From assembly GCA_033855845.1 (NCBI GenBank), contig JAWVFR010000078.1, forward strand, positions 10,013 through 74,012: 64,000 nt of DNA. Direction: 5' to 3'. Below, piece after piece: positions 808 to 16,843 of this stretch. A program made the translations under genes and the position numbers. Within the stretch, counting starts at the first letter, position 1. Every line of letters begins with the position of its first letter. This stretch comes from Solirubrobacteraceae bacterium. GTDB taxonomy: Bacteria > Actinomycetota > Thermoleophilia > Solirubrobacterales > Solirubrobacteraceae. The notes beneath the pieces are model-generated. The model did not search any database and was not told where the DNA came from. It saw only the letters and a list, made by a program, of their open reading frames with translations.

Positions 808-2601
808 ATGGACTCCGAGAACCGGCCACATCTGCGGTCCGTCGACCACGGACCAGAGAGCGAGGGTGCCCTCGCTCGCAAGCCCCAGCCCGCGAAGGCC
901 AACCCGGGCATCACGGCGCCGAGCCGCCGCGGCGGCTCGGGCCGGTTCCTGACCGACGTCGTGGTGGAGATGGGCTTCGTGGACCGCCAGGCCGTCGACG
1001 CCGCCATCGACGCCGCCCGCACCGCGGGGCGCACCCCCGAGCAGGTCCTCCAGGAGCAGGGAAGCCTGACCCAGGACCAGGTGGCCCGCGCCGTGGCCGA
1101 GCGCTACGGCCTGGACCACCTGGACCTCAACGTCTTCACCATCGACATGGGCGCCGCGAACCTGATCAGCGCCTCCGCTGCCAAGCGCTACGAGGCGGTG
1201 CCGATCGCCTTCGTGGACGAGCGCACGCTGATGGTGGCGATGGTCGACCCCAGCAACGTGCTCGCGGTCGACGACATCGCGATCATGACCGGGCTGGAGG
1301 TGCGCCCGGCCGTCGCCTCACGGGAGGACGTCTCCGCCCTGATCTCTCGGCTGAACCGCCTGGACGACGTCGTCCAGGGCGTCGTGGAGGAGGAGGACGA
1401 GCAGCATCCCGCCGAGGTCGTCGACCTGCGCGAGTCCGCCGACGACGCGCCGGTCATCAAGCTCGTGCACTCGATCGTCGCCCAGGCCGTCGACCAGGGC
1501 GCATCGGACATCCACTTCGAGCCCGACGGCAGCGAGATGCGCGTGCGCTTCCGTGTGGACGGCATGCTGGCCAGTTCGGCCACGGTCCCGCGCCGGATGG
1601 TCCGCGGCGTCGTCTCGCGCATCAAGATCATGGCCGACCTCGACATCTCCGAGCGCCGCCTGCCCCAGGATGGCCGCGTGGGTCTGAACATCGAGGACAA
1701 GCACATCGACGTCCGCGTGGTCACGCTGCCCAGCGTCCATGGCGAGTCGGTGGTCATGCGCATCCTGGACAAGGACTCGGTGGTCGTCGACCTCGACAAG
1801 CTGGGGATGTCCCCGGACGAGCGCGACCGCTACGAGGACGGCTTCACCCAGGCCTACGGCGCGGTCCTGGCCACGGGCCCGACCGGCTCGGGCAAGTCGA
1901 CCACGCTGTACGCGGCGCTCCAGCACATCAACACCACCGACAAGAACATCATCACGATCGAGGACCCGGTCGAGTACCAGGTGGACGGGATCACGCAGGT
2001 GCAGGTCAACCCCAAGGCGGGGCTGACCTTCGCCAACGGGCTGCGCTCCATGATGCGCGCGGACCCCGACGTGATCATGGTGGGGGAGATCCGCGACTCC
2101 GAGACCGCGAAGATCGCGATCGAGTCGGCCCTCACCGGGCACCTCGTCCTCTCCACGCTGCACACCAACGACGCGCCGACGGCGATCACGCGGCTGCTGG
2201 AGATGGGCATCGAGCCCTTCCTGGTGGCGAGCGCCATCGACTGCGTGGTGGCCCAGCGCCTGGCGCGCACCCTGTGTCCGACCTGCAAGAAGCGCACGCT
2301 GATCCCCGCCGCGGTCCTGCGCGAGAGCGGCTTCACGGCCCAGTACGACCTGGAGGCCTACGAGCCCGCCGGCTGCGGTCGCTGCGGCCAGACGGGCTAC
2401 AAGGGCCGCACCGGCCTCTACGAGGTCATGAAAGTCAGCACCGAGGTCCGCGACCTGATCCTGGAGCGCGCGTCGGCCGACCGCATCGCCGCCGTGGCCG
2501 TCGAACAGGGCATGCGGCGCCTGCGCGACGACGGCCTGGAGAAGGCCCGCCAGGGCCGTACGTCCATCGCCGAAGTTGCACGAGTGACGGATTCCGGCTG
2601 A
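808..2601 (+). CDS. pilB: type IV pilus assembly ATPase PilB (GspE family)
   Basis: ORF 694-2601 has a T2SSE_N-like N-terminus, Walker A GPTGSGKSTT and a tetracysteine CPTC...CGRC. Start set at ATG 808 because codons 694-807 carry many A/T third positions, unlike the rest. GTG 694 is the alternative. Confidence 0.9.
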   Translation: MDSENRPHLRSVDHGPESEGALARKPQPAKANPGITAPSRRGGSGRFLTDVVVEMGFVDRQAVDAAIDAARTAGRTPEQVLQEQGSLTQDQVARAVAERYGLDHLDLNVFTIDMGAANLISASAAKRYEAVPIAFVDERTLMVAMVDPSNVLAVDDIAIMTGLEVRPAVASREDVSALISRLNRLDDVVQGVVEEEDEQHPAEVVDLRESADDAPVIKLVHSIVAQAVDQGASDIHFEPDGSEMRVRFRVDGMLASSATVPRRMVRGVVSRIKIMADLDISERRLPQDGRVGLNIEDKHIDVRVVTLPSVHGESVVMRILDKDSVVVDLDKLGMSPDERDRYEDGFTQAYGAVLATGPTGSGKSTTLYAALQHINTTDKNIITIEDPVEYQVDGITQVQVNPKAGLTFANGLRSMMRADPDVIMVGEIRDSETAKIAIESALTGHLVLSTLHTNDAPTAITRLLEMGIEPFLVASAIDCVVAQRLARTLCPTCKKRTLIPAAVLRESGFTAQYDLEAYEPAGCGRCGQTGYKGRTGLYEVMKVSTEVRDLILERASADRIAAVAVEQGMRRLRDDGLEKARQGRTSIAEVARVTDSG

Positions 2602-2648
2602 TCTGCCGATAAGACCCTGACCCCCCGGCCACCTACCCCTCCGAATCT

Positions 2649-3728
2649 ATGAACTTCGACTTCGCAGACGTCCTCATGGAAGTGCTCGAGCGCCGCGCCT
2701 CCGACCTGCACATCGCGGCCGGCGCGCCGCCCACCATCCGCATCCGCGGGCGCCTGGTCGCGCTCGAGGACTACCCCCGCCTGACCCCTTCGGACACGCG
2801 CGAGATCGTCTACTCGATCCTCGGCAACGACCAGCGCCAGCGGCTGGAGACCGACCTGCAGGTCGACCTGGCCTACGCCATCCCCGGGCGCGCGCGCTTC
2901 CGCGTCAACGCCTACTTCCAGCGGGGCGCCATCGGCGCCGCCTTCCGCCTGATCCCGGCGAACATCGCCGGCATCGACGAGCTGGGCCTGCCGCCGATCG
3001 TGCACGAGCTGACCAAGAAGCCCCGCGGCTTCGTGCTGTGCACCGGCCCCACCGGCTCCGGGAAGTCCACCAGCCTCGCGGCGATGATCAACGAGATCAA
3101 CGAGACCCGCGAGGAGCACATCATGACGGTGGAGGATCCGATCGAGTTCCTGCACCAGCACAAGAAGTGCCTGGTCAACCAGCGCGAGCTGGGCAGCGAC
3201 GCGATCACGTTCACCGACGCCCTGCGCGCCGCCCTGCGTCAGGACCCCGACGTCATCCTGGTCGGCGAGATGCGCGACCTGGAGACCATCTCCACCGCGC
3301 TGACCGCGGCCGAGACCGGCCACCTCGTCTTCGCGACCCTGCACACGCAGGACACGCCGCAGACGATCGACCGCATCATCGACGTGTTCCCGCCCCACCA
3401 GCAGCACCAGGTGCGCGTCCAGCTGTCGGTCGCCCTGCAGGGGATCATCACCCAGACCCTGCTGCCGACCGCCGATGGCGCGGGCCGCTGCCTGGCCGCC
3501 GAGGTGCTGGTGCCCACGCCGGCCATCCGCAACCTGATCCGCGAGGGCAAGACGCACCAGATCTACTCGGTCCTGCAGACCAGCGCGTCGGCCGGCATGC
3601 AGACCATGGACTCCTCGCTGGCCAACCTGGTCCGCACCGGCCGCATCACCCGGCAGCTGGCGGAGCAGCGTTCCACGACCCCGGACGAGCTGCGCCGCCT
3701 GCTGGGCGCGACTCCGATGGCCGCCTAG
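2649..3728 (+). CDS. pilT: twitching motility (retraction) ATPase PilT
   Basis: 359 aa with a typical PilT N-terminus (ASDLHI...PPxIRI), Walker A GPTGSGKSTS and DPDVILVGEMRD. Confidence 0.92.
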   Translation: MNFDFADVLMEVLERRASDLHIAAGAPPTIRIRGRLVALEDYPRLTPSDTREIVYSILGNDQRQRLETDLQVDLAYAIPGRARFRVNAYFQRGAIGAAFRLIPANIAGIDELGLPPIVHELTKKPRGFVLCTGPTGSGKSTSLAAMINEINETREEHIMTVEDPIEFLHQHKKCLVNQRELGSDAITFTDALRAALRQDPDVILVGEMRDLETISTALTAAETGHLVFATLHTQDTPQTIDRIIDVFPPHQQHQVRVQLSVALQGIITQTLLPTADGAGRCLAAEVLVPTPAIRNLIREGKTHQIYSVLQTSASAGMQTMDSSLANLVRTGRITRQLAEQRSTTPDELRRLLGATPMAA

Positions 3729-3744
3729 GCGCGGGAGCAGCGAC

Positions 3745-4953
3745 GTGGAGACCTACGTCTTCAAGGCGATGGACCTCACCGGCGCCCCGGCCAAGGGCGA
3801 GGTGGAGGCCGACTCCAAGCAGGCGGTCACCGAGCAGCTCAAGCAGCGCGGCCTGATCGTCCTGGACATCGACTCCAAGTCGAAGTCCAAGGAGATCAAC
3901 ATCGAGTTCATGCAGCGGGTCAAGCTGCGCGAGCTGGCGATCATGACCCGCCAGCTCTCGACGATGATCTCGTCGGGCATGACCATCCTGCGGGCGCTGA
4001 ACGTGCTCGAGGCGCAGACGCAGGGCAAGCTGCTGCGCGAGACGCTGATGGGCGTGCGCCGCGACGTGGAGGCCGGGCTGCCGCTGTCGGACGCCATGGG
4101 CCGCCACCCCAAGGTCTTCGGCCCGCTCTTCACCTCGATGATCCGGGCGGGGGAGACGGGCGGGATGCTCGAGGAGTCCCTGGTGCGGATCGCCGACCAG
4201 CTGGAGAAAGAGGACGCGCTGCGCCGCCAGGTGCGCGCGGCCATGGCCTACCCGGCCGTCGTCGTCACCTTCGCCGTGGGCGTGATGCTCGCGCTGGTGG
4301 CCTTCATCGTGCCGGTGTTCGCGAAGATCTTCAGCGAGTTCAAGGGCGAGCTCCCGACGCTGACCAAGCTCACGATGAACGCCTCCAGCTTCCTCACGGG
4401 CCGCTGGTACCTGGTCATCGCCGTCACCGGCGGCGCGATCTGGGCCTTCATCATGTGGAAGCAGTCCGAGTGGGGGCGTCCGCAATGGGACGCCTTCAAG
4501 CTCCGGCTGCCGCTGAAGATCGGCGACACCGTCCAGAAGATCGCCCTGGCGCGCTGGTCGCGCACGTTCTCGGCGCTGATCTCCTCGGGCGTCCCGATCC
4601 TCCAGGCGATCGAGATCACCGGCAAGACCGCCGGCAACGCGCTCGTGGAGCGCGCGATGGCCGACGTGACGGAGTCCGTCAAGCGCGGCGGCACGATCGC
4701 GGCGCCCCTGAAGAACGTGCCGGTGTTCCCGGCCATGACGGTCGACATGATCGCCGTGGGCGAGGAGACGGGCGCCCTGGACACGATGCTGTCCAAGACC
4801 GCCGACTTCTACGAGACCGAGGTCGAGGCCTCGGTCAAGGCCATCACCTCGATCCTCGAGCCGGCGATGATCATCGTCGTCGGCGGCATGGTCGGGTTCA
4901 TCGTGATCTCGATGTACCTGCCGATGTTCAAGGTCTACGACCAGATCAAGTAG
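3745..4953 (+). CDS. pilC: type IV pilus platform protein PilC (GspF family)
   Basis: 402 aa with two GspF-type repeats and three TM segments, directly after pilT. GTG start. Confidence 0.9.
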   Translation: METYVFKAMDLTGAPAKGEVEADSKQAVTEQLKQRGLIVLDIDSKSKSKEINIEFMQRVKLRELAIMTRQLSTMISSGMTILRALNVLEAQTQGKLLRETLMGVRRDVEAGLPLSDAMGRHPKVFGPLFTSMIRAGETGGMLEESLVRIADQLEKEDALRRQVRAAMAYPAVVVTFAVGVMLALVAFIVPVFAKIFSEFKGELPTLTKLTMNASSFLTGRWYLVIAVTGGAIWAFIMWKQSEWGRPQWDAFKLRLPLKIGDTVQKIALARWSRTFSALISSGVPILQAIEITGKTAGNALVERAMADVTESVKRGGTIAAPLKNVPVFPAMTVDMIAVGEETGALDTMLSKTADFYETEVEASVKAITSILEPAMIIVVGGMVGFIVISMYLPMFKVYDQIK

Positions 4954-4955
4954 CG

Positions 4956-4997
4956 CAGCGCGCTTCCGGGCGCGCTGAATGGCGTTCAGCCGTTTTT
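4956..4997 (+). terminator. intrinsic terminator after pilC
   Basis: Hairpin CAGCGCGC-ttccgg-GCGCGCTG (4956-4977), then CTGAA-tggcg-TTCAG followed by CCGTTTTT (T-run 4993-4997). Confidence 0.6.
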
Positions 4998-5091
4998 CAC
5001 CCTTGCCTTGAACCCCGCCGCGTCGTAGCTTCCCCGTGCCGCCGGCGGGACTGCCGCGCGGGACAAGAGCAGGGGAACTCAGGGGGGACAC

Positions 5092-5664
5092 GTGGTCGGG
5101 ATCAGGCGCTGGTCGAGTGCTGTCGTATGCGCAGCCGCTGTTGCCGCCGTGGTGGCGGTCGGGGCCGCGCCGGCGGCGGCTCACACGGGGGGCTCGAACT
5201 GCCAGGGCAACCTGGCGCAGTCGGGTGCGACCTACCAGGGAAGCTGCACGTTCCCCTTCCAGGGCTACCCGATCGGGATGGCGGCGGTCTACGAGCCCTC
5301 GTCTACGGACCCGACCCCGAAGCCGAGCCAGATCCACGCGGAGGTCCTGCTCAAGCCCGCCTTCGGGACGCCGCAGACGATCGCGATGGAGTGCTACGCG
5401 CCGGACCCGAACGCCGACGGCACGATCCCGAAGGTCTACGGGCCCATGCGCTGCCGCCGGGAGTACAACGCGCCCCAGGCCGATGCGCAGTTCACGCTGC
5501 CGGAGCCGTTCCCCGCGGAGATCGTGTCGATGCAGTGCAGCGCGCACAGCCACGCCACGTACTCGCGCCTCTACCCGCCGTCGGGGACGTTCGCGTGCTG
5601 GTCCACGAACGAGGCGCGCCAGGACCTCGAAGAGGACGGCGTCTTCGCGGCGATGGGCTTCTAG
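5092..5664 (+). CDS. secreted cysteine-rich protein, unknown function
   Basis: 190 aa with a signal peptide ending AAPAAA|HTGG and 8 Cys in the mature part. G-rich SD before GTG 5092. Its stop overlaps the next start (TAGTG). Confidence 0.6.
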   Translation: MVGIRRWSSAVVCAAAVAAVVAVGAAPAAAHTGGSNCQGNLAQSGATYQGSCTFPFQGYPIGMAAVYEPSSTDPTPKPSQIHAEVLLKPAFGTPQTIAMECYAPDPNADGTIPKVYGPMRCRREYNAPQADAQFTLPEPFPAEIVSMQCSAHSHATYSRLYPPSGTFACWSTNEARQDLEEDGVFAAMGF

Positions 5665-6149
5665 TGCGCCGCCTCGCCGCGACGGCCGCGGTGCTGCTCG
5701 CCGGGGCGATCGCCCCGGCGAGTGCGTCCGCGCACGAGCCGAATCCGTTCGAGACGCTCGGGTCGGCCGGCGTGACCGGCGTCGTGGTCTCCTACCCGTT
5801 CGAGCGCTACGCCCCGGAGCCGGTCCACGTGTCGCGCTCGCTCGGGCTGCGCTACGTCAACCTCGACATGGGTTGGCACAACGTCGTCGCGCTGGACGCG
5901 CGGCGCCCCGGCGGATCGGCGCCCTGGTGCAAGAACTACCCGGCCGATCCCGAGCAGCCCGGGGTCGAGCAGTGCCCGCTGTTCTGGACCCCGCTGCTGC
6001 CGCCCGGCGGGTCCGACCCCTCCTACGTCACCGACCGCAGGAGCGACCACATGGTCGAGGGCCTCCAGGACACGAAGGTCGGCCAGACGTACACCTACTA
6101 CTGCGAGATCCACCCGCTCATGAAGGGCACGATCGAGGTCGTCGAGTGA
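5664..6149 (+). CDS. secreted type-1 (blue) copper protein, amicyanin/plastocyanin-like cupredoxin
   Basis: GTG 5664 is in frame with ORF 4455-6149. Signal peptide ends ...ASASA|HEP. Upstream His in GWHNV; C-terminal YYCEIHPLMKGTIEVVE gives Cys-x2-His-x2-Met ligand spacing. Confidence 0.75.
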   Translation: MRRLAATAAVLLAGAIAPASASAHEPNPFETLGSAGVTGVVVSYPFERYAPEPVHVSRSLGLRYVNLDMGWHNVVALDARRPGGSAPWCKNYPADPEQPGVEQCPLFWTPLLPPGGSDPSYVTDRRSDHMVEGLQDTKVGQTYTYYCEIHPLMKGTIEVVE

Positions 6150-7618
6150 TGCGCCGGGCCCTTCCGGCGCTCGCCGCCGCCGCGGCCCTGCTCGCCGCCC
6201 CGGCCGCCGCGTCCGCCGCCTGCGATGCGCCCGCCAGCCCCGCCGGCGAGTGGCCCTCGTACGGCCGCGACCTCGCCAACAGCCGCGTCCAGCCCGACGA
6301 GCACGCGATCGGGAAGGACAACGCGGCGTCGCTGAGGCCCGCGTTCGTCTACCGCACGCCCGGCCCGATCAACGCGACGCCGGTGGTCGACGGGGGCTGC
6401 GTGTTCGTCGCCTCGCAGGGCGCCGGGGCCCAGGAGGCCCGCGTCGCGGCGATCGACGCCGGCACGGGGCAGGAGGTTTGGGCCTGGCAGTCGACCATCG
6501 GCACGCCGTCGTTCGGCGGGCCGGCGGTCTCCACGCCGGCGCTGTCGGGCAACCTTGTGATCACCCCCATCAACAAGAACGCGGCGCCGTTCCTGGTGGC
6601 GAACGACCGCTCGACCGGCGCCGAGGTGTGGCGCAGGAAGCTCGACGACCAGGCCAACAGCGGCGTCAACGCGAGCGCGGTCGCCTACGACGGGATGGTG
6701 GTCGCCGGCTTCTTCGGCAACGCCGACGCGGGCTCGCACGAGCGTGGAGGCTTCGTGATCGTCGACGCGGCCACCGGCCAGATCGTCAAGAAGACGTACG
6801 CCATCCCCGACGCCGACTTCGCCGCGGGCTACGAGGGAGCCGGCATCTGGTCGACCCCCGCGATCGACACGAGCACGGGGTACGCGTACGCGGGCACGTC
6901 GAACCCGCACAACCCGCACCGGGAGCACGCGCGGTCCAACGCGCTGATCAAGATCGACCTGAACCGGGGAAGCCCGACGTTCGGCGAGATCGTGGCCTCC
7001 TACAAGGGGGTCGGCGACACGGTCGTCCCAGGCGCGTCGCAGCAGCCCGTGTGCGAGACCAAGCCCGACGTCTACTACGCGTACTCGTTCAGCGCCACGT
7101 GCCTCGCCGCGGACCTCGACTTCGGCTCGTCGCCGAACCTGTTCGCCGTCGACGGTCAGAAGCGGATCGGCGACCTCCAGAAGTCCGGCGTCTACCACGT
7201 CGTCGACGCCGGGACCATGGCGGGCGTCTCGCGCACGCCGGTCGGCGCGGCGTGCTTCGCCTGCAACGCCGCGTCCGCGGCGTTCGCCTCCGGCCACGCG
7301 TACGTGGCGGGCGGGCCGCCCGGCGAGCTGGTCGCGATCGACGGCGCCAACGGCGTGCCGGCGTGGGCCGCCCCGATCGCGGGCGGCTTCACCTACAACC
7401 CCGTGAGCGTCGCCAACGGCGTGGTCTGGACCCAGGACTCGCAGGGGTTCCTGGACGCCTACGACCAGCGGACCGGCGCCGTGCTGGTCAAGCGCAACAT
7501 GCAGGGCGACACCGGCGCCTCGGTGCGGCAGACCACCACGAGCGGCGGCATCGCGATCGCCCGCAACACCTTGTACACGGCCGCGGCCTCATACCTGATC
7601 GCCTACCGGCCGGCCTAG
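6149..7618 (+). CDS. secreted PQQ-dehydrogenase-like beta-propeller protein
   Basis: ATG 6149 overlaps the preceding TGA (GTGATG). Signal peptide present. Motifs: EWPSYGRDLANSR, PVVDGGCVFV, AIDAGTGQEVW, GAGIWSTPAID..YAYAGTSNP, as in quinoprotein dehydrogenase propellers. Confidence 0.75.
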   Translation: MRRALPALAAAAALLAAPAAASAACDAPASPAGEWPSYGRDLANSRVQPDEHAIGKDNAASLRPAFVYRTPGPINATPVVDGGCVFVASQGAGAQEARVAAIDAGTGQEVWAWQSTIGTPSFGGPAVSTPALSGNLVITPINKNAAPFLVANDRSTGAEVWRRKLDDQANSGVNASAVAYDGMVVAGFFGNADAGSHERGGFVIVDAATGQIVKKTYAIPDADFAAGYEGAGIWSTPAIDTSTGYAYAGTSNPHNPHREHARSNALIKIDLNRGSPTFGEIVASYKGVGDTVVPGASQQPVCETKPDVYYAYSFSATCLAADLDFGSSPNLFAVDGQKRIGDLQKSGVYHVVDAGTMAGVSRTPVGAACFACNAASAAFASGHAYVAGGPPGELVAIDGANGVPAWAAPIAGGFTYNPVSVANGVVWTQDSQGFLDAYDQRTGAVLVKRNMQGDTGASVRQTTTSGGIAIARNTLYTAAASYLIAYRPA

Positions 7619-7654
7619 TCACCAGCAGGGGAACCCCATGGGAGGAAACAGGAA

Positions 7655-8470
7655 ATGAAGACCAGAATCGTTGCGCGCGGCGCACTGCTCGCGTCCGTTC
7701 TCACGCTCGCGCTCGCCCCGGCGGCGACGGCGCAGGAGGGCGTAGACCCGCAGAAGGCGGCCGAGACCGTCGTGGGCGCCGTGCAGAAGACGTTCGGCGG
7801 CGGCATCACCTCGCACAGCTACGACTGCCAGGAGGGCAGGCCCGCGGTGCAGGCGGTCGTCAACGGCGTCAAGGACTCGCTGAAGTACAGCTACCCGGAC
7901 ATCTCGACGATGGCCGCGCGCGGCTACGCGCCGTATCCGGACGCGTTCCTGCTCGGCCTGTCGGGCGGCCAGGGCCACTGGCTGAACCCCGGTTTCCTCG
8001 AGGACGGGCACATCATGGACCCGAAGCGTCCCGAGGGGATTCTCGTGGACCGCTACCAGCGGCCGATCGGCGTGATGTTCATCGCCGACGACCCGCACGT
8101 GCCGGGCCCGGACATGTACGTGGACGACGCGACGGGCGTTCCCTGCAACGGCTGGCACTACCACGGTGAGATCACGGCCGACGCCTACTGGTACGCCTAC
8201 AAGTACGGCTGGAGCGGTGACACGCAGACCGCCCTCGGCTCCGGCGACCTCAGCAAGCTCCAGCCGCCGGACCGCACGCCCGACCTGATGCACGTGTGGG
8301 CCTACGGGGCGGACGGCGTCGCGCCGGACGGCACGCAGCTGTTCAAGTACCAGTTCCAGCACGCCACGCCCCCGGCGAAGTACATGCCGCCGGCACCGGA
8401 CGTGACGGACCCGAACCAGGCCCGCTGCATCGTCGGCGGCTTCCGGCCTCCGGGCGCGAACCCCTGCTAG
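7655..8470 (+). CDS. secreted His/Trp-rich protein, unknown function
   Basis: 271 aa. SD GGGAGGAAACAGGAA precedes the ATG. Signal peptide ends ...APAATA|QEG. Contains GHW, GWHYHGE and MHVW motifs. No family recognised. Confidence 0.65.
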   Translation: MKTRIVARGALLASVLTLALAPAATAQEGVDPQKAAETVVGAVQKTFGGGITSHSYDCQEGRPAVQAVVNGVKDSLKYSYPDISTMAARGYAPYPDAFLLGLSGGQGHWLNPGFLEDGHIMDPKRPEGILVDRYQRPIGVMFIADDPHVPGPDMYVDDATGVPCNGWHYHGEITADAYWYAYKYGWSGDTQTALGSGDLSKLQPPDRTPDLMHVWAYGADGVAPDGTQLFKYQFQHATPPAKYMPPAPDVTDPNQARCIVGGFRPPGANPC

Positions 8471-8546: not shown

Positions 8547-8732
8547 ATGGCCGTCGAGGAAACGCTCGACCCCGCCGAGTGCCGCGCCTGTCACGGCACC
8601 GGGAAGGTGGTCTCCATGCTGGGCGGCGAACGCCAGGACGTCGACTGCCCGTGGTGCGACGGTACCGGGCGCTTCATCCCCGAGCACGACGCTCAGGCGA
8701 AGTGGGGGGACCCGCCCCCCGCCGCCGCGTAG
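8547..8732 (+). CDS. small DnaJ-type zinc-finger protein
   Basis: 61 aa with two CxxCxGxG motifs (CRACHGTG, CPWCDGTG). Confidence 0.5.
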   Translation: MAVEETLDPAECRACHGTGKVVSMLGGERQDVDCPWCDGTGRFIPEHDAQAKWGDPPPAAA

Positions 8733-8739
8733 GCGGCGG

Positions 8740-9459
8740 TCACACCGCCACCGGGCCCGGCACCAGGACCGCCGGATCGTGCCCGGGCAGGACGTTCGCG
8801 CCGGCGTCGCGCAGGGCGCGCAGCCGCTCGGCGGACGCGGCCTGCGCGCCGTGGTCGGCGGCGAAGAGGGGGAACCGGTGGTCGTCCAGGCCGGACGCGA
8901 AGTGCGTGACGTCGCCGCCGATGACCAGTAGCTCGCCGACGAGGACCGACTGGTGGCCGGGCGTGTGCCCGGGCGTCAGCAGCAGCCGGACCGACCCGTC
9001 GCCGAGCAGGTCGTGGTCGCCGTCGACGAGTGTCACCTGCCGCTCGGCCGCCGCGTAGTCGGCGGGCAGGTAGAAGTTCTTCTCGACCCCGGCGGCGTCG
9101 TGGGCGGCCTCCCACTCTCGGCGCTGCACCACGATCGGAACCGACCCCGGGAGCAGCGCCAGCGCGCTCGCGTGGTCGAAGTGCAGGTGCGTCAGCACGA
9201 CCCGGGTGACCGTGGCCAGGTCCACCTGCTCGGCGACGCTGCGCTCGAGCTCGAGTCCGAAGCCGGCCAGCGAATCCGGCCGGCCGTAATGGCGCGCGGG
9301 GTCCGCGACCGCCGCGGGGTGCAGGCCGGTGTCGACCAGGATCCGCTCGCGCGCCGTCTCGATGACGTAGGCCGGGATCGGAAAGCGGATCCGGTGGTCG
9401 AGGTCATCGCCGCGGCGCCAGAGTCCGGCGGCGGCGGTGAGCCATCCCACGTCGAGCAT
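8740..9459 (-). CDS. MBL-fold metallo-hydrolase, N-acyl-homoserine-lactonase-like
   Basis: C-terminal 239 codons of ORF 8740-10431. Has the HxHxDH motif (THLHFDHAS) and later [11 protein letters not shown] at 9459; GTG 9471 is the alternative. Confidence 0.8.
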
Positions 9460-9531
9460 CTCGACCTTCACGACGGGAAACCTAGACCGGGCGGTGGTAT
9501 CGATCGCGACGCGTCCGATACGGTTTGCGAC

Positions 9532-10473
9532 ATGCGCATCGGTCTCGTCGCGGTGCCCGGCTGCTTCGACTCCGGCCTCACCGCATTGCTGGACGTCTTC
9601 GCCACGGCGGAGCGCCTGCGCGCGACGGTCGATCCCTCCATCGATCCGCTCGAGGTCCACACGGTCGGCAGCGCGACGAGGGTCACCACCGGCGCGGGTC
9701 TGACCCTGGCCATGGATCGCGTCCTCGGCGACGACTCCGCGCTCGCCGGCCTCGACGTGCTCGTCGTGCCCGGCCTGGGCTCGGCGACTCCCGCGGCCCT
9801 GGCCCAGGCCCTCGCGTCCCCGCACGTCCGGCGCCTGCGCAACCGGCTCGCGGCGGCCGGCGACGACCTGGCGCTCGCGGCCGCCTGCACCGGGACGTTC
9901 GTGCTCGCCGACGCCGGCCGGCTCGACGGTCGCGCGGCGACGACGACCTGGTGGCTGGCCGGCGAGTTCCGGCGGCTCTACCCGAAGGTCCGGCTGGAGA
10001 TGTCGCGCATGGTCGTCCACAGCGGGTCGGTCACCACGGCCGGCGCGGCGTTCGCGCACATCGACCTCGGCATGAGCCTCGTCTCCCGGGCCAGCCCGCA
10101 GCTGGCCGACGCGGCGGCTCGCTACCTGCTCGTGGACCAGCGTCCCACCGTCAGCCTGGAAGCGGCCGTGGGGCACCTCGCCGCGGCGGACTCGCTGGTC
10201 ACCGAGTTCGAGGACTGGATCCGGGAGAACCTGGCCGGGGACCTGACGATCGACGACGCCGCCGCGGCCATCGGCACCACGCGCAGGACCCTGGAGCGTC
10301 ACTGCCGCACGCGGACCGGCCTCACTCCGCACGACCTGGTCCAGCGCCTGCGCGTCGAACGGGCCAACCACCTGCGCCGGACGACCGGCCTCGGCTACGA
10401 CCAGATCGCGCCGCTGGTCGGATACCGGCACGGCACGACGCTGCGGGCCCTGCTGCGCCGGGGCGCCGCCTAG
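9532..10473 (+). CDS. GlxA-family transcriptional regulator (DJ-1/PfpI domain + AraC HTH)
   Basis: ATG 9532 is in frame with ORF 8953-10473. N-terminal class-I glutamine-amidotransferase-like fold and C-terminal AraC-type HTH. Divergent from the MBL gene. Confidence 0.85.
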
Positions 10474-10479
10474 CGGCGT

Positions 10480-12024
10480 CTAGCGGGGCGGGACCTGCTC
10501 GGTCTGGCGCACGACGCGCCAGGAGACCTGGACCGGGTCCAGGAACGACGGCGGCTCGCGGTAGCGCAGGCGGTCGTCGTAGTTGTAGGACTTCGTGTAG
10601 CCGGTGCCTCCGGAGCCGCCCGACGTTCCCACCGGGCCGCGGAACTTCTGCGCGATCGCCCCGGTGACGGTCAGGGTCCCCAGCCGGGCGCCGCAGTAGT
10701 AGTTGTCGACGATGAACGAGTGCTGAAGGGCGAGGATCGCGGCCTCCACGGTCACGTTCTGCATCGTCCCGGTCGAGTTCGAGCACGACTGGCCGTCGTT
10801 GCCGCTCACCGGGTGGTAGATCCGGACGAAGTTGTTGGCGATAAGGCCGACCAGCACGTCGCCGGACCGGGTGATGTCGCCGTTGACGATCACGTCGTTG
10901 TCGGCGGCGATGGTCACGCTGCGCGACGTGGAGCCGCGCACCCAGACGTCGCCGCACCCCGTGGGCGTCGTGTAGCTCTGCGCGATGTTGTAGCCGCTGG
11001 AGCCGCAGCTGCCGCTCTGCACGTAGATGATGCCGTTGGCCGGGATCGCCACCGTGGAGACGGCTCCCGTGGGGCCGGTGACGGTCATGTTCGCGCCGTT
11101 GAGGACGATCTTGGTCGTGCCGGTGAAGCGCGCGCCGGCCAGCGAGTTCAGCGTGGCGTTGGAGGGCGGCAGGGTCAGCGTGGGCGCCGACGTGGTCCAC
11201 GTCCCCACGAAGTTGGGCGTGACCGAGCCGCAGTTGGTGCGGTAGCCCGGGTCGGGGGCCGAGACCTCGACCACGTCCGCCCGTGAGCGTCCGAAGGTCG
11301 GCGCGCCGCAGGTCAGGATGTCGTCGTTGGTGTGGAAGGGCCCTGCGACCACGTCCTCGTTGGCGAACTGGATGCGCGAGCACGACGCGTTGCGTCCCTG
11401 CCGCCACCACTTCGCGCAGTTGGCGCTGGCCCAGGCGATGCTGCTGGAATCGCCGTAGGTGACCGGGTCGGCCGTCTCGAAGTCGGTGAAGTAGATGTAG
11501 TCGATGAACGAGCGGCGGCGGAAGGTGGCGATGATGCTGCGCTTGGACTTGCCCACTCGACCCGTGGTGCGGATCCGGACGGCGCCTGTGGCGTCGTCGA
11601 CCATCGAGGCCTGGGCCTGGGACTCCTGACATTGGGCGTACCCGTTGGCGGGCAGCAGCTCGGTCGTCCACTGCGCGGTGGTCCCCGACAGCGTGCGCCA
11701 GCTGCGCGGATCGGCTCCCGTGCCGTTCCACGGCTGGTTGACCGCGCTGGGCTCGCTCGCGTTGGGCGGCGGGACGTTCGTGCAGCGCGCCCAGTAGCCG
11801 TTGTCCTGGTTGAGGTGGTAGGTGTAGACGTTCAGGCCGGCCTCGGCGGCGGCGTAGGCGGCGCGGCGGTCCTGGTCGTTGCGGGCGAGCGAGATGTCGC
11901 CGTCGGACGCGGCGTAGGCGCCCGCGACCAGCAGGCCCCCGACCATCATCACGCCCATGACGGTGATCATCGCGAAGCCGCCGGACTCCCGGAGCCGGTC
12001 GCGCAGGCGGCGGATCACAGGCAT
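10480..12024 (-). CDS. PilX-like minor pilin / pilus tip protein (514 aa)
   Basis: N-terminus ESGGFAMITVMGVMMVGGLL plus AAYAAAEAGL, as in the PilX_N domain. Long Gly/Thr/Asn-rich C-terminal region. SD GGGAGG upstream. Confidence 0.7.
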   Translation of the reverse strand: MPVIRRLRDRLRESGGFAMITVMGVMMVGGLLVAGAYAASDGDISLARNDQDRRAAYAAAEAGLNVYTYHLNQDNGYWARCTNVPPPNASEPSAVNQPWNGTGADPRSWRTLSGTTAQWTTELLPANGYAQCQESQAQASMVDDATGAVRIRTTGRVGKSKRSIIATFRRRSFIDYIYFTDFETADPVTYGDSSSIAWASANCAKWWRQGRNASCSRIQFANEDVVAGPFHTNDDILTCGAPTFGRSRADVVEVSAPDPGYRTNCGSVTPNFVGTWTTSAPTLTLPPSNATLNSLAGARFTGTTKIVLNGANMTVTGPTGAVSTVAIPANGIIYVQSGSCGSSGYNIAQSYTTPTGCGDVWVRGSTSRSVTIAADNDVIVNGDITRSGDVLVGLIANNFVRIYHPVSGNDGQSCSNSTGTMQNVTVEAAILALQHSFIVDNYYCGARLGTLTVTGAIAQKFRGPVGTSGGSGGTGYTKSYNYDDRLRYREPPSFLDPVQVSWRVVRQTEQVPPR

Positions 12025-12689
12025 GACTGGCCTCCCGTCGGGTTCAGCGGATCGGCGCTGCGCACGTAGACGTCGTCCTGGAGCGTGGTGGAGTTGGTGT
12101 CGACCGTCGCGCGCTCCGGCCGCGCGGTGAAGGTCACCGCGATGCGCGCGGTGCGCCCGAGGTCGGTGCTGGACAGCGGTACCGGCAGCGCGACGTTGGC
12201 CCCGCGACCGCCCGAGGCGTCCAGGGCGTAGTAGCTGAAGACAGGCGTGGTGCCGGCCTGGCCGGCGTTGGTCAGCAGCGTGCGCGCCGTGCTCGGGGAG
12301 GAGGGGAAGGTGTAGTTGGGGAACGTCCCGGCGCCCGGGTAGACGGACTCGTCCAGCGTGCGCGTGGAGGACGAGTAGACGATCGAGCGACGCTCGGGCG
12401 GGCTGTTGCCTCCGCTGAGGTCGACCAGCAGCGTCACGCCGTTGGCGTCGCCCGCGGTCAGCGAGGCGCGACTGGCGCCGATGCAGACCTGCGAGCGCAG
12501 CGTGCGCACCACGCTCTCCATGGCCAGGCGGCCACGCTGGGAGGCGTCCGAGCGCTCGGCGGCCTCCCGGTTGGCGGTGAAGGCCCGGTCCAGGACGGCG
12601 AAGGCGGCCAACAGCAGGATGACGCCGATGAACATGCCGATGAGCAGCTCGGGCAGGGTCATGCCGTCCTGTCCGCGCAGCCTCGTCAT
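12015..12689 (-). CDS. prepilin-type minor pilin, PilW-like
   Basis: Class III signal MTRLRGQDG|MTLPELLIGMFIG with Glu at +5. Its start overlaps the upstream stop (ATGA at 12686-12689). Confidence 0.75.
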   Translation of the reverse strand: MTRLRGQDGMTLPELLIGMFIGVILLLAAFAVLDRAFTANREAAERSDASQRGRLAMESVVRTLRSQVCIGASRASLTAGDANGVTLLVDLSGGNSPPERRSIVYSSSTRTLDESVYPGAGTFPNYTFPSSPSTARTLLTNAGQAGTTPVFSYYALDASGGRGANVALPVPLSSTDLGRTARIAVTFTARPERATVDTNSTTLQDDVYVRSADPLNPTGGQSCL

Positions 12690-13999
12690 GCGCAGACTCC
12701 GCTCGTGGAGAGCGTCAGGGTGGTCGTCGCCGTGCCCGCGGCGGTGAAGTTGTTCACGGTGGCGAACGCTCGCCTGTTGTTGCCGTCGGCGCAGATGAAG
12801 TAGCGGCCGAAGGGATAGCCAGGGCTGGGCAGGGCGCCCGAGGCGTTGGTCAGCTGGGTCGGGTACGTGGATCCACACCCGCTGTCCAGCGGCGTGACGA
12901 AGACGCGCGCGTTCTGGAGCAGCACGCCGGAGCTGTTCTTGACCGCGAGGTTGACCGCCGGGACGCGCACCGTGACGTTGAAGGTGCCGCCGGGGGTGAC
13001 GGCCACCAGGCCCGCGTTGGCCGTGTAGTAGTTGGCGTCGTAGGTCGTCGGGTCGTTCGCGGCGCAGTCGCCGGCGAAGGTCCCATAGCCCCCCGTGAAC
13101 GGGTAGAGCGTCGCGAAGGAGATCGTGTTCGACGACGCCGGCCACGAGGACAGCGTGGTCGACTTGCGCCCGGGGGAGGGGAGGTTGGGGTTGGCCACGC
13201 TGGCCGCGCGCGCGGCGGCGGGCACCGGGTCGGCGCTGAGAACCTTGGTGGCGAAGCTGACGTTGATCGTGCTGGGTACCTCGAGCTCGATCGTGTCCAG
13301 CGTGGTGGCTCCGTCGACCACGTCGACGGAGTCGCTGATGTTCGAGCTCCCGGAGCGGTCGACGAGCCCCGTCGCGGCCACCGTGACCGTGTGCGTGGCG
13401 GCCGGGACCATGGGGAACACGGCGCAGCCGGCCTCGTTGGTGGTGTCCGACAGCGCCGTGGAGGGACCGGTGAGGTTGACGGTGAGCCCGGGGCGTGGAT
13501 TGCCCGCACGGTCGGTCACCAGGACGGCGAGCGTTCCCTGGCCCGGGGCGAAGGCGCCGTTGGGCGGGGTGAGCAGGCTGGTCGAGGTCACGGGGGATCC
13601 CGTCCGCCCGTCCACCGGGGTCACGGTGGACACGAGCTTGAGGTAGCTGGCCGCGCTGGAGTCGTTGGTGCAGCTGATCGTGCCGCTGCTGTCGCGCAGC
13701 CACTGCGTGCTCGAGGTGACCGTGTAGGGGACGCCGCCGACCGTCACGGTGCGCGTCTCGCGGAAGTTGGAGAGCGCGGTCGCCTTGAAGGAGCGCATGC
13801 GCTCCTGGTCCTGCTCGGCCAGGGTGGCCGCGATCGAGCGCACGCGGTTCTTGGTGGCCGTCTTGACGGCGCCCTCGACGCCGCTGAACACGGCGGTGCT
13901 GACCGCAGCGAGCGCGAGCGCCGCGAACATGACCTCGATGAGGATCCCGCCGCGCTGGCTGCGCAGCGACGGGCGCCGGATACGGGAGAAGGGACGCAT
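12686..13999 (-). CDS. large minor pilin, PilV-like, with CarboxypepD_reg-like Ig domains (437 aa)
   Basis: N-terminus SQRG|GILIEVMFAALALAAV (Glu +5) plus SIAATLAEQ. Internal LAVLVTDRAGNPRPGLTVNLTG...TNEAGCAVF resembles a carboxypeptidase-regulatory fold. Confidence 0.65.
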   Translation of the reverse strand: MRPFSRIRRPSLRSQRGGILIEVMFAALALAAVSTAVFSGVEGAVKTATKNRVRSIAATLAEQDQERMRSFKATALSNFRETRTVTVGGVPYTVTSSTQWLRDSSGTISCTNDSSAASYLKLVSTVTPVDGRTGSPVTSTSLLTPPNGAFAPGQGTLAVLVTDRAGNPRPGLTVNLTGPSTALSDTTNEAGCAVFPMVPAATHTVTVAATGLVDRSGSSNISDSVDVVDGATTLDTIELEVPSTINVSFATKVLSADPVPAAARAASVANPNLPSPGRKSTTLSSWPASSNTISFATLYPFTGGYGTFAGDCAANDPTTYDANYYTANAGLVAVTPGGTFNVTVRVPAVNLAVKNSSGVLLQNARVFVTPLDSGCGSTYPTQLTNASGALPSPGYPFGRYFICADGNNRRAFATVNNFTAAGTATTTLTLSTSGVCA

Positions 14000-14134: not shown

Positions 14135-16843
14135 ATGTCACCGGGTGCCCGCCTCCGACTCGTCGTGCTGGCCGCCGCCGCCGTGGCGGCGCTGGCCGCC
14201 GCGCCCGCGGCCCAGGCCGACGTCCTGGTGAGCCACGTCGGGTCCACACTCACCGAGACCACCGGCAACGGGGACGGGCTGGTCGCCCCGGGCGAGGGCT
14301 TCGCCCTGACCGAGCGCATCGCGAACTCGGACTCGCTCGTGCCCTCGATGACCGGCGTGACGGGCACGCTCGCGTACGACCCCGGGACCACGGCCCAGGC
14401 CGGCCCCCCGCTGGTCAGCCTCGCCAACGTCTTCTCCAACTACCCGAACCTGGCCTTCGGCGCCCAGGGCGACAACCAGGCCTCCTACACCGGGACGCTC
14501 GCCAGCGCGGCGGAATGCGGGGTCAACCTGCCCTTCGTCCTGTCGGTCGCCAGCGACCAGGGACCGTCCACCGTCCCGTTCCAGGTCCGGACGGGCCTGG
14601 CCGGTCCGAGCGTGGCGTGGGACAGCGTCGACGTGCCCCACGCGATCCCCGACGGCGCCGCGACGCAGTCGAGCCTGGCTGTGTCGGCGGCCGGGCGCGT
14701 CAAGGACGTCCGGGTCCGCATTGGCTCGATCCCGCATACGCGCACGGGAGACGTGAAGATCGAGCTGGTCTCACCCAGCGGGGCCTCGGTCGTGCTGGTG
14801 AACGCGGAGGGCGGCAACGGCCAGGACTTCTCCAACACGACCTTCTCGGACTCCGCGGCCCAGACCATCGTCGGCGCCGCCGCGCCCTTCACCGGCACCT
14901 ACCGCCCCTTGGAGCCGCTGTCCAAGATGATCGGCCGCTCCCAGCAGGGCACGTGGTACCTGCGGGTCACCGATCAGGCGGCCGGCAACACCGGTCAGAT
15001 CGCCGCGTGGGGGGTGGACGTCCGCACCGCCGTTTGCAACGCCAACCCGATCGCCTCCTTCACCGCTACGCCCAACCCGGCCCTGCCGGGGCAGGCCATC
15101 GCGCTGGACGCCTCGGGCTCCGTCTCGCCGACCGGCACGATCGCCAAGTACGAGTGGGACGTGAACAACACCGGAACCTTCGTGGACCGGGGCACGGTCC
15201 CGACCCACTCGGCCACCTTCCCCACGCGCGGCAGCTATCCGGTCACGCTGCGGGTCACCGACGGCCTCGGCCGTCAGAGCACGAGCGTCGTGAACCTCAG
15301 CGTCACCGTGCCGCCGACCGCGGCGATGACCTCATCGCCGGCGTCGCCCCTCACCGCGGAGGACGTCACGCTGGACGCCTCGGGCTCCACCGACCCCGAC
15401 GGGCTCCCGATTGCCAAGTACGAGTGGGACCTGACCGGGACCGGCACGTTCACGCGCGACACGGGAACCACGCCCACGACGACGGTCCAGTTCGCCACTC
15501 CCGGCACCAAGACCGTGCGCGTGCGCGTGACCGACGTCGACGGCGCGACCGCGGTCGCGTCTCGCGACATCGTGGTGGCCAACCGTCCGCCGGTCGCCGC
15601 CCTGGCCGTGCCCACGCCCGCGGTGGTCGGGGTCCTGGCCACGTTCGACGCCGGAGCCTCCACGGACCCCGACGGGGCGATCGTGCGCTACGAGTGGGAC
15701 CTGGACGGCTCCGGCACCTACGCGACCGACACCGGCAACGTCTCCACCCTTCCGCACACCTTCAACGCGTCCGGCACGTACCCGATCGGCGTGCGGGTCA
15801 CCGACGACCAGGGCGTCGTGTCGACGATCGTGCAGCAGGTGGTCGCCACCCGCGCCCCGGTGCCCAGCTTCACCGCCTCGGCCAACCCGACGTCGCTCCA
15901 CCGGCCCGTCAGCTTCGACGCGACCGCCTCCGCCGATCCCGACGGCACCATCGCCCGCCACGAGTGGGACCTGGACGGCAACGGGACCTTCGAGACCGAC
16001 ACCGGCTCCAGCCCGCTGGCATCGCATGTCTACGACCAGAACGGGACCTACGCGGTCAAGCTGCGGGTGACGGACGACAAGGGCGCGCAGGCGCAGCACA
16101 CGGTCAACCTCGTGGCCGCCAACCTCGCTCCGACGCCCGCGCTCAGCGTCAATCCCGGGCGGGTGCCGGCGGGCCAGCCCGTCACCCTCGACGCCGGCGG
16201 CTCCAGCGACCCCGACGGCACGATCGTCAAGTACGAGTGGGACCTGGACGGCAACGGCACCTTCGAGAAGTCGACCGGCGCGACGTCCTCGCTCACACGG
16301 TCATATCCCAATCCCGGCGGCTTCACCGTCGGGGTGCGCATCACCGACAACGACGGTGCGACCCGCACGACCACGCAGTCGCTGACGGTCCTCGACGCGC
16401 CGGCCGGGGGCCCCGGCAGCGGGCCCGGCGGCTCGGACCCCGGCTCGGGCGGCTCCGGCGACCCGGGCGGCTTCCCGAGCGTTGCCACCGGGCCCCTCCG
16501 CGCCACGCTGAGCGGCAGCCCGCTGCAGCGGATCGCCGCCGTCACGCTGCGCGGACTGGCCGTGGGCTGCCAGGCCGACCGGGTCGCGACATGCGCCCTG
16601 GTGCTCGAGCTGCGGGCCGCGGATGCCCGCCGCCTGGGCCTGCGCACCGCGCGCACCATCGTCCTGGGCCGCGCCACGCTCTCCGTCCGCTCGGCCGGCA
16701 TCCGGACCGGGCGCGTGCGTCTCACCGCCTACGGCCGCTACGTCCTGCGGCGCGCACCGAAGGTGCTCGTGGTCATGCGCGCCACCGTGCGCGCCAGCGC
16801 GCTCTCGGTGCGCCTCTCGCGGACCTTCCTGCTGCGCCGCTAG
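14135..16843 (+). CDS. secreted proprotein-convertase P-domain + 5x PKD-domain protein (902 aa), candidate adhesin
   Basis: ATG 14135 is in frame with ORF 13391-16843. Signal peptide ends ...AAQA|DV. P-domain motifs: PHTRTGDVKIELVSPSG..GTWYLRVTD..G.IAAWGVDV. Five PKD repeats (YEWDLDGNGTFE), a G/S/P linker and an Arg-rich C-terminal domain. Confidence 0.8.
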   Translation: MSPGARLRLVVLAAAAVAALAAAPAAQADVLVSHVGSTLTETTGNGDGLVAPGEGFALTERIANSDSLVPSMTGVTGTLAYDPGTTAQAGPPLVSLANVFSNYPNLAFGAQGDNQASYTGTLASAAECGVNLPFVLSVASDQGPSTVPFQVRTGLAGPSVAWDSVDVPHAIPDGAATQSSLAVSAAGRVKDVRVRIGSIPHTRTGDVKIELVSPSGASVVLVNAEGGNGQDFSNTTFSDSAAQTIVGAAAPFTGTYRPLEPLSKMIGRSQQGTWYLRVTDQAAGNTGQIAAWGVDVRTAVCNANPIASFTATPNPALPGQAIALDASGSVSPTGTIAKYEWDVNNTGTFVDRGTVPTHSATFPTRGSYPVTLRVTDGLGRQSTSVVNLSVTVPPTAAMTSSPASPLTAEDVTLDASGSTDPDGLPIAKYEWDLTGTGTFTRDTGTTPTTTVQFATPGTKTVRVRVTDVDGATAVASRDIVVANRPPVAALAVPTPAVVGVLATFDAGASTDPDGAIVRYEWDLDGSGTYATDTGNVSTLPHTFNASGTYPIGVRVTDDQGVVSTIVQQVVATRAPVPSFTASANPTSLHRPVSFDATASADPDGTIARHEWDLDGNGTFETDTGSSPLASHVYDQNGTYAVKLRVTDDKGAQAQHTVNLVAANLAPTPALSVNPGRVPAGQPVTLDAGGSSDPDGTIVKYEWDLDGNGTFEKSTGATSSLTRSYPNPGGFTVGVRITDNDGATRTTTQSLTVLDAPAGGPGSGPGGSDPGSGGSGDPGGFPSVATGPLRATLSGSPLQRIAAVTLRGLAVGCQADRVATCALVLELRAADARRLGLRTARTIVLGRATLSVRSAGIRTGRVRLTAYGRYVLRRAPKVLVVMRATVRASALSVRLSRTFLLRR
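15038..16396 (+). repeat. five tandem PKD-domain coding repeats (270/273-nt period)
   Basis: The (T/C)ACGAGTGGGAC (Y/H-E-W-D) codons recur at 15149, 15419, 15689, 15959 and 16232. Confidence 0.85.

Follow-up and report, generated by a model that had tools for sequence, protein, structure and literature searches.

A conserved four-gene operon of Solirubrobacterales encodes a cupredoxin, a shortened PQQ dehydrogenase-type propeller and two unannotated proteins

Quinoprotein dehydrogenases and small electron carriers are known as pairs, the partner being amicyanin for methylamine dehydrogenase and azurin or cytochrome c for pyrroloquinoline quinone (PQQ) alcohol dehydrogenases. A stretch of 64,000 nucleotides (nt) from a bacterium of the Solirubrobacteraceae (GenBank assembly GCA_033855845.1, contig JAWVFR010000078.1, positions 10,013 to 74,012 of the forward strand), which as a whole is called the window below, likewise encodes an exported propeller homolog beside a small blue-copper protein. 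Both belong to an operon of four open reading frames (ORFs) on the same strand, g1 to g4:

5092 to 5664, + strand: g1, exported protein of 190 amino acids (aa), predicted jelly-roll β-sandwich, six invariant Cys in the mature part.
5664 to 6149, + strand: g2, exported cupredoxin of 161 aa, which has the ligand set of a type-1 copper site as well as a conserved Cys pair (C89 and C104).
6149 to 7618, + strand: g3, exported β-propeller of 489 aa, of the PQQ alcohol-dehydrogenase superfamily, shortened and without the Cys–Cys ring.
7655 to 8470, + strand: g4, exported protein of 271 aa, with a confident model and no fold match in the PDB.

The copper loop of g2 has the C-x2-H-x2-M spacing of amicyanin. 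On the other hand, the propeller belongs with the PQQ alcohol dehydrogenases and is not the seven-blade heavy chain of methylamine dehydrogenase; for the window and the related loci, the gene products listed or scanned included no reported subunit of that enzyme (such as the light subunit with tryptophan tryptophylquinone) and no MauG. Compared with the known quinoprotein–cupredoxin pairs, g3 has neither the Cys–Cys ring nor the canonical Ca ligands, g2 is a protein of 161 aa that contains a disulfide-bearing insert of ~50 aa and frequently occurs in fusion with another domain, two additional unannotated proteins are obligate partners, and the host is monoderm. The cupredoxin, the PQQ-type propeller and the logic of their association are known; the divergent active site and the two unannotated families are new here, and no description of this combination of proteins was found in the searchable literature.

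Our favored reading, held tentatively and with a confidence slightly short of even, is that this self-contained operon of Sec-exported proteins builds a redox module in the wall or on the outside of the membrane. In such a module, g3, a shortened eight-blade propeller, would be the substrate-oxidizing subunit and g2 would transport single electrons. The g1 protein would partner physically with the cupredoxin and probably provide a second metal (copper) site, or else dock the carrier, and g4 would be a further metal-binding partner, serving as an electron sink or source or as a metal-insertion factor. Which way the electrons flow, what the substrate is and what g1 and g4 do are all inferred. 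An earlier note on this DNA had already proposed a module leading from a dehydrogenase to a blue-copper protein, placed within a pilus locus; synteny, copper ligands and dehydrogenase homology bear out that proposal in part, whereas the classical cofactor residues, the membership in the amicyanin family and the link to the pilus do not. If the reading is correct, electron transfer between a quinoprotein-like dehydrogenase and a blue-copper protein would take place in the Solirubrobacterales, an abundant and poorly studied soil lineage, in the absence of a periplasm. Two families without annotation in Pfam or NCBIfam would also be defined, a jelly-roll with an N-terminal His and a four-His protein without a fold match in the PDB. 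The module is a natural test of active-site divergence in PQQ dehydrogenases (no Cys–Cys ring and a His replacing the Ca-binding Asn), and, being a small operon with natural fusions, it could be tested directly by expression.

The four genes are present where the earlier note had placed them, and the translational coupling described there for the first three takes the form of one-base overlaps, between the stop TAG of g1 and the start GTG of g2 (5662–5666) and between the stop TGA of g2 and the start ATG of g3 (6147–6151). Between g3 and g4 there is a spacer of 36 nt containing GGGAGG. The window DNA has ~70% GC, and the GC fraction at third codon positions is 0.94–0.98 in g1 to g4, like that of the host pilC (0.99), which indicates real genes with native codon usage. 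As the earlier note had claimed, all four products start with signal peptides: in the alignments, the N-termini of the products and of their homologs have a basic n-region, an Ala/Leu/Val-rich h-region and an AxA-type site (the cleavage sites were predicted by eye from these alignments). A terminator-like hairpin follows pilC, and the operon is therefore probably transcribed on its own; no sigma-70 consensus was found in the upstream region at 4991–5091. The elements around the genes are as follows:

4968 to 4990, + strand: terminator-like hairpin and T-run, 3′ of pilC, which sets the operon apart from pilBTC.
4991 to 5091, + strand: non-coding stretch 5′ of the genes; a G-rich ribosome-binding sequence lies directly before the GTG start.
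7641 to 7646, + strand: GGGAGG, ribosome-binding site of g4, in the g3–g4 spacer.

The protein families are very rare: in a search of 5.8 billion protein clusters, six relatives of g2, nine of g1 and 35 of g4 were found. The order g1(-g2)-g3-g4 occurs in at least 11 independent loci from metagenomes or metagenome-assembled genomes (MAGs), that is, on every related contig with enough flank (L001, L002, L003, L004, L005/6, L007/8, L011, L012, L013, L014/15, L103 and L104; the contigs of L003, L011 and L104 are broken inside g3 and that of L002 inside g4). The co-occurrence of the four genes, which the earlier note had suggested checking, is thus seen with the same order throughout. Four separate genes, as in the window, are present in L001, L002, L003, L014/15 and L103. 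Fusion of g1 with the cupredoxin is seen in about half of the loci: the first gene encodes a g1–cupredoxin fusion in L004, L012 and L013 (P0049 is a further fusion protein of this kind) and a g1–g1–cupredoxin polypeptide in L005/6 and L007/8. This repeated fusion shows that g1 and the cupredoxin act together.

Among 185,579 species representatives scanned, one genome, an uncultured Conexibacter MAG, contains the complete module and one Solirubrobacteraceae MAG contains a remnant of g4; the module thus appears restricted to the Solirubrobacterales (Thermoleophilia, Actinomycetota). The remnant (L010, 8001–8360) retains only the C-terminal half of a g4 homolog, with no propeller upstream, and looks like a decayed copy of the module. 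It adjoins an ORF with FG-GAP-like repeats (of the DFDGDG type) that resembles the FG-GAP/β-helix neighbor in L014. The genes flanking the module vary between loci, so that its site in the window, between pilBTC and the minor-pilin genes, is incidental. The earlier note had left the position of the operon inside a pilus locus unexplained; related loci have no conserved pilus context. A functional tie to the type IV pilus locus can be discarded on the differing flanks in every related locus together with the hairpin after pilC.

The propeller g3 is the most conserved protein of the module, with 66–74% identity between loci versus 49–67% for the others. Its first ~200 residues align to PQQ alcohol dehydrogenases in the PDB (E = 6e-16 with the single sequence and 1.6e-12 with the profile). 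With hhalign, the homology to three annotated dehydrogenases of the PQQ methanol/ethanol family covers the full length (99.1%, E = 6.7e-19, 382 columns, residues 23–450), with two large deletions in g3, ~100 aa in total, between residues 366 and 393. This agrees with the description, in the earlier note, of a 489-aa quinoprotein propeller about 100 aa shorter than its classical relatives. That note had also considered that the protein might cluster with BamB-like scaffolds, and g3 does have PQQ_2-type repeats in common with BamB (YfgL). However, the BamB matches are weak (E = 3.7e-4 in the PDB profile search) and limited to one pair of blades (residues 377–453), the scores with the BamB models NF008351 (44 bits, cut-off 423 bits) and TIGR03300 (41 bits, cut-off 285 bits) are far too low, and there is no conserved lipobox at the Cys following the signal peptide. 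BamB acts in the BAM complex of the outer membrane, and the host lineage has no outer membrane. We therefore rejected a BamB-like g3, the homology to PQQ alcohol dehydrogenases being far stronger and full-length. Judged by these alignments, g3 is clearly dehydrogenase-like and not BamB-like, with a predicted metal site unlike the classical one. Anchoring as a lipoprotein through Cys25 was rejected as well, in view of the missing conserved lipobox; Cys25 more likely pairs with C84.

Among annotated proteins, those closest to g3 are "PQQ-binding-like beta-propeller repeat proteins" from Streptomyces and Paraburkholderia (30–34% identity over ~330 residues, E ~1e-22). They also are without the Cys–Cys ring and have the motifs DFDFG..PNL and QKSGVY in common with g3, but they are ~50 aa longer, stand alone without cupredoxin, g1 or g4, and do not contain the EH, SHE and CxxC motifs of g3. 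One of them adjoins lankacidin-type polyketide synthase genes on plasmid pSGRIFU1 of Streptomyces griseofuscus, a plasmid that also carries pqqABCDE. From its gene context, we take this propeller to be the probable counterpart of the quinoprotein dehydrogenase of S. rochei. The Cys–Cys ring is absent from the pSGRIFU1 protein too, so that its absence in g3 does not exclude PQQ. In S. rochei, the last step of lankacidin synthesis was assigned to a quinoprotein dehydrogenase (Yamauchi et al. 2018, as cited in PMC12301235).

In g2, the full type-1 copper ligand set noted earlier, with its upstream His in WHNV, is invariant: H72, C147, H150 and M153 occur in all seven of the g2 homologs aligned (7/7) and are kept in the fused forms.

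5877 to 5879, + strand: codon of His72 (WH[ND]V), upstream copper ligand, from the alignment and the PDB matches.
6102 to 6122, + strand: codons of C147-E-I-H150-P-L-M153, the amicyanin-type C-x2-H-x2-M loop.

The PDB matches of g2 in sequence and profile searches, which span the His segment and the C-terminal loop, are for the most part to cupredoxins (azurin, amicyanin, plastocyanin and the cupredoxin domain that forms the C-terminal extension of nitrite reductases); they are weak, with E between 0.02 and 0.8. All of those that come near significance are cupredoxins, and the profile search gives almost nothing else (E 0.02–0.7). In the match to a chain of amicyanin, CEIHPLM of g2 is aligned with the loop CTPHPFM. 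The invariant Cys pair, C89 and C104, lies within the insert of ~50 residues. The fused homologs score 16.5–20.2 bits against Pfam Copper-bind over the whole domain. A second copper site formed by an N-terminal His of the cupredoxin was rejected, that His being confined to the window protein and its 94% twin. The earlier note had predicted an N-terminal His after cleavage in both g2 and g1; the prediction holds for g1.

In g1, there are seven Cys, not the eight counted earlier: one in the signal peptide and six, all invariant, in the mature protein. The four His (H31, H82, H152 and H154) are all invariant, as is W170. His31, the predicted first mature residue (cleavage after AAA), is invariant in 10/10 homologs as well as in the fused forms.

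5182 to 5184, + strand: codon of His31 of g1, invariant in homologs and fusions.
5545 to 5553, + strand: codons of H152-S153-H154 of g1, the invariant HxH, from the alignment.

An N-terminal His can chelate a metal by its amine and its imidazole in any fold, and the CuB site of particulate methane monooxygenase (pMMO) adds one more coordinating His (PMC12537917). With its predicted His at position +1 and its HxH, g1 resembles the histidine-brace proteins (lytic polysaccharide monooxygenases, or LPMOs, CopC and the CuB site of PmoB in pMMO) and the N-terminal-His "signal strapping" metalloproteins treated in the same work; its His pattern fits a putative N-terminal-His metal site. It has, however, no sequence or Pfam relation to LPMO, CopC, DUF4198 or DUF6702, and the fold predicted for it, a jelly-roll with six Cys, resembles that of carbohydrate-binding modules (CBMs). 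No Pfam, NCBIfam or PDB match was obtained for g1 by sequence or profile. The natural fusion P0049, modeled from the combined alignment, is an all-β jelly-roll over g1 with a predicted local distance difference test (pLDDT) of 70–86 and a low-confidence N-terminal segment. Its fold matches are CBM61, CBM16, CBM4, CBM22 and TNF-like proteins, all weak (E ~2e-3, TM-score 0.37–0.47), and neither LPMO nor CopC occurs among the 50 matches listed.

These data bear on an LPMO-like alternative, in which the g1–cupredoxin would be a two-copper enzyme, with electrons entering at the type-1 copper and a catalytic copper held by the N-terminal His and the HxH, acting with O2 or H2O2 on a polymer of the wall or the environment. 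The propeller would supply the electrons, as the fungal PQQ pyranose dehydrogenase does for LPMOs, and g4 would be an extra metalloprotein. Copper enzymes often combine a type-1 copper domain with a catalytic copper domain (nitrite reductases, multicopper oxidases), and the g1–cupredoxin and g1–g1–cupredoxin fusions follow the same design logic, although g1 is not a cupredoxin domain and has none of the type-2 or type-3 copper motifs of those enzymes. The fusion in about half of the loci, the invariance of the His at +1, of H82 and of H152-x-H154, the CBM resemblance and the histidine-brace principle with its pMMO precedent all speak for such an enzyme. Yet the fold matches are weak, any clustering of the His is hypothetical, given the low confidence of the N-terminal segment in the P0049 model, and the second of two tandem g1 copies keeps its His although it is not N-terminal without processing; moreover, glycoside hydrolases and polysaccharide loci are not linked to the module. 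We consider this alternative improbable. A more specific form of the redox reading seems to us equally doubtful: a cofactor-divergent PQQ-like propeller would reduce a tethered cupredoxin, which would feed a new copper center of the histidine-brace type (N-terminal His and HxH) on the CBM-like g1, with g4 as a fourth, dedicated four-His metalloprotein of a fold not seen before, from a superfamily that repeatedly accompanies cupredoxins in bacteria and reaches a haloarchaeal MAG. The whole would be a secreted copper oxidative system, so far unrecognized, of monoderm soil Actinomycetota.

The tandem g1 copies are found in the first gene of L005 (6769–8382) and of L007 (989–2602), where two g1 domains are followed by the cupredoxin. 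DNA identity between the two copies is 100% in L005, over a stretch of at least 300 nt, and 85% in L007. The linker between them is strongly basic (Arg, Lys and Ala) and ends with KKK or RGSV directly before the His; it could be a processing site that exposes a second N-terminal His.

The model of g4, built from 33 sequences, is confident (pLDDT 81, predicted TM-score 0.76). When it was searched against the PDB, no fold match was found (best E 1.1, TM-score ~0.1), and no fold of the periplasmic-binding-protein type (as in MxaJ or XoxJ) appeared; sequence and profile searches of the PDB gave only chance-level matches to COQ9. An exhaustive profile search delineates a g4 superfamily of 111 cluster representatives, 11 of them at E ≤ 1e-30. 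Most are 200–300 residues long, the aligned ones start with N-termini like those of signal peptides or lipoproteins, and one comes from a haloarchaeal MAG. Neither the Pfam and NCBIfam scans nor the source names of the relatives gave anything that covers the g4 part; the sole family match is to WG repeats, in one multidomain relative. Residues H108, W167-H168-x-H170 and M141 are invariant over the superfamily, and H213, E127, D122 and P123 nearly so; this conservation points to a candidate four-His metal site. The GWHYHGE motif mentioned in the earlier note is present, as NGWHYHGE.

8153 to 8164, + strand: codons of W167-H168-Y169-H170 of g4, from the superfamily alignment.

In 80 metagenome loci of remote g4 members, no neighbor of the propeller, g1 or g2 families was observed. 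Among the 43 of these loci with enough upstream DNA, four have an unrelated cupredoxin domain (C-x2-H-x4-M) at the end of the gene directly upstream, one of the four being above the Pfam cut-off, so that the g4-type fold turns up again next to blue-copper proteins outside the module. These four loci may represent one lineage and not four independent events, because they are related to one another. The cupredoxin-ended genes (H..GY[FY]C-x2-H-x4-M), all on marine or sediment metagenome contigs, are:

L023, 298 to 2310.
L036, 998 to 1468.
L065, 4181 to 5800.
L100, 313 to 1062.

The two long genes among them have an N-terminal region in common, for which the L065 copy gives a weak SurA-like Pfam match below the cut-off. 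A recurrent ArnT-like neighbor of the remote g4 genes turned out to be an artefact of an out-of-frame ORF. One remote g4-like protein (L044, C-terminal part of 4588–6672) bears a tail rich in His, Gly and Asp (…HDHAEHGDAHAGHAGHEG…HGGHGG), typical of metal-binding tails.

A number of observations weigh against a redox module. The comparison of the g3 active site relies on a MAFFT alignment with genuine PQQ enzymes at 25–29% identity, in which shifts of one or two residues are possible. There, the Cys–Cys of the reference enzymes is replaced by F-G-G in 5/5 full-length members of the g3 family that were aligned, so that the ring is absent. The Ca or lanthanide ligands of MxaF are Glu177 and Asn261, and its catalytic Asp, in the W-D-F motif, is Asp303 (ligand numbering from PMC8028316). 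The column of the Glu contains N191-A192-D193 in g3 and the G-D-N motif is replaced by an invariant R-E259-H260; neither Glu nor Asn is conserved. For the catalytic Asp, the alignments disagree: MAFFT places it at the invariant D324-F325 and hhalign at Y312-S313-F314. Model TIGR03075 gives g3 61 bits against a cut-off of 480 bits, which limits the full-length homology to the superfamily level, and tblastn detected no pqq genes in the 64 kb of the window, nor in the related loci, for which up to 10 kb of flank on either side was covered. In g2, Pfam Copper-bind (PF00127) is matched at 19.1 bits, below its cut-off of 21.2 bits, and only over the C-terminal loop. The cupredoxin part of the P0049 model is of medium confidence (pLDDT ~53–81), and cupredoxin folds are absent among the 50 matches listed for that model, all of which are jelly-roll or CBM-like. 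The putative metal sites of g1 and g4 are proposed from residue conservation. Finally, the module has neither a membrane electron acceptor nor a c-type cytochrome linked to it.

The amicyanin model TIGR02657 scores 14.6 bits on g2, against a cut-off of 110.2 bits, another of the points that count against the reading; the plastocyanin equivalog also stays far below its cut-off. Because the ligands and the loop spacing match while these scores fall so short, g2 is, as far as can be predicted, a divergent type-1 copper cupredoxin with amicyanin-type loop spacing and not an amicyanin. The likeness to amicyanin stressed in the earlier note is thus one of spacing and not of family membership. By its ligand set, g2 would be expected to bind copper.

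Other positions of g3 are retained. W234, K345 (in K345-S-G-V-Y-H) and N373 align to the conserved W, K/R (in K/R-N-G-F-F-Y) and N (in H-N-W) of the PQQ alcohol dehydrogenases. These positions are presumably PQQ contacts in the latter, with W as the floor Trp. Specific to the g3 family are S-H197-E198, H254, H350 and the CxxC formed by C369 and C372. The earlier note had proposed to look for the Ca ligands, the Cys–Cys ring and pqq genes; the ring, the Glu and Asn ligands and nearby pqq genes are missing, and the catalytic Asp is kept by MAFFT and not by hhalign. The cofactor of g3 would be PQQ or another.

6923 to 6928, + strand: codons of E259-H260 of g3, invariant, aligned to the G-D-N motif by MAFFT.
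7118 to 7120, + strand: codon of D324 of g3 (DLDFG), candidate equivalent of the catalytic Asp by MAFFT, not by hhalign.
7253 to 7264, + strand: codons of C369-F-A-C372 of g3, family-specific invariant CxxC beside the conserved Asn373.

A classical PQQ dehydrogenase of the methanol/ethanol type, with Ca (or a lanthanide) and an amicyanin as acceptor, and with g1 and g4 as accessories like MxaI or MxaJ, is on these data very unlikely. The alignment of the N-terminal 200 residues to PQQ alcohol dehydrogenases, the full-length homology of g3 and the amicyanin spacing of the g2 loop would suit such an enzyme. But both equivalog models fail by a wide gap, the Cys–Cys ring is absent, the Glu and Asn ligand positions are replaced, ~100 aa are missing and the pqq genes are not found nearby. 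In addition, the fold of g4 has no match in the PDB, periplasmic-binding-protein folds of MxaJ and XoxJ included, and a monoderm host has no periplasm in the classical sense.

The lack of the canonical Ca ligands and of the Cys–Cys ring in g3 is also compatible with capture, trafficking or homeostasis of a metal, probably copper, where g1 and g4 would pass metal ions, the cupredoxin-like protein would be a buffer or chaperone and the propeller a non-catalytic scaffold. In L001, the last 46 residues of a metal-sensing repressor of the CsoR/RcnR family (2–142; H-x3-C motif; PF02583 at 24.3 bits, cut-off 22.8 bits) are encoded directly upstream, the gene ending ~110 nt before the g1 homolog. This neighbor would equally suit the favored redox module. 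Secreted proteins with an N-terminal His include metal-capturing "anglerases" and sequestrases (PMC12537917), and the relatives of g4 are small secreted proteins or lipoproteins with four conserved His, one of them with the His-rich tail. However, the CsoR-type neighbor occurs in one locus only; elsewhere the regulator is PucR-like (upstream in L005 and L013) or there is no adjacent one. Genes for transporters, P-type ATPases or CopC/CopD are not linked to the module in any of the loci. For a scaffold, it is unusual that the propeller is the most conserved protein and retains full-length dehydrogenase homology, and electron carriers are the proteins that typically have a type-1 site which is complete and includes an axial Met. 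A role in metal handling is therefore unlikely, in our judgment, and we retain the redox module as the favored reading.

Some neighbors recur around the module in related loci. Downstream from g4, on the same strand, a gene for a large protein with RTX (HemolysinCabind) repeats is present in four loci of the fused clade:

L005, 13578 to 15506, same strand as g4: RTX-repeat gene.
L007, 5361 to 8591, same strand as g4: RTX-repeat gene.
L011, 2465 to 3970, same strand as g4: RTX-repeat gene.
L013, 7547 to 10633, same strand as g4: RTX-repeat gene.

In L005, g4 is separated from the RTX gene by a gene for an alkaline ceramidase; no RTX gene is present in the window. In L104 only, g4 is followed on the same strand by a gene (2482–4179) for a 565-aa propeller of the lactonase/SMP-30/NHL type, a faint hint of sugar-lactone chemistry. 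In the Conexibacter-like branch, the propeller (L005, 8382–9965; L007, 2602–4209) and g4 (relatives P0033 to P0037) carry basic tails rich in Ala, Arg and Lys, which are missing from the clade of the window; these tails may anchor the two proteins to anionic wall polymers.

The window itself is chromosomal core, with aroE, pilBTC, the module, a Zn-ribbon protein, a metallo-β-lactamase-fold protein, an AraC/DJ-1 regulator, minor pilins, pilD, pilM, aroK/aroB, efp and nusB. Right after the operon, an ORF of 61 aa (8547–8732) contains two CxxCxGxG zinc-finger motifs of the DnaJ central-domain type, below the Pfam cut-off, and is not kept in related loci. Between it and the minor pilins there is a divergent pair (8740–10473), a metallo-β-lactamase-fold gene on the − strand and a GlxA-like regulator of the DJ-1/PfpI-AraC type on the + strand. 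Three minor-pilin-like genes follow (10480–13999, − strand), adjoined by the gene for a large exported protein (14150–16843) in which a proprotein-convertase P-domain is combined with five PKD domains; beyond that region come the prepilin peptidase (18062–18811) and pilM (18888–20000). The genes efp and nusB are usually neighbors; in the window, efp (32664–33224) and nusB (34233–34634) are separated by an AbiEi-antitoxin/DUF559 (REase_MTES_1575) gene at 33276–34220.

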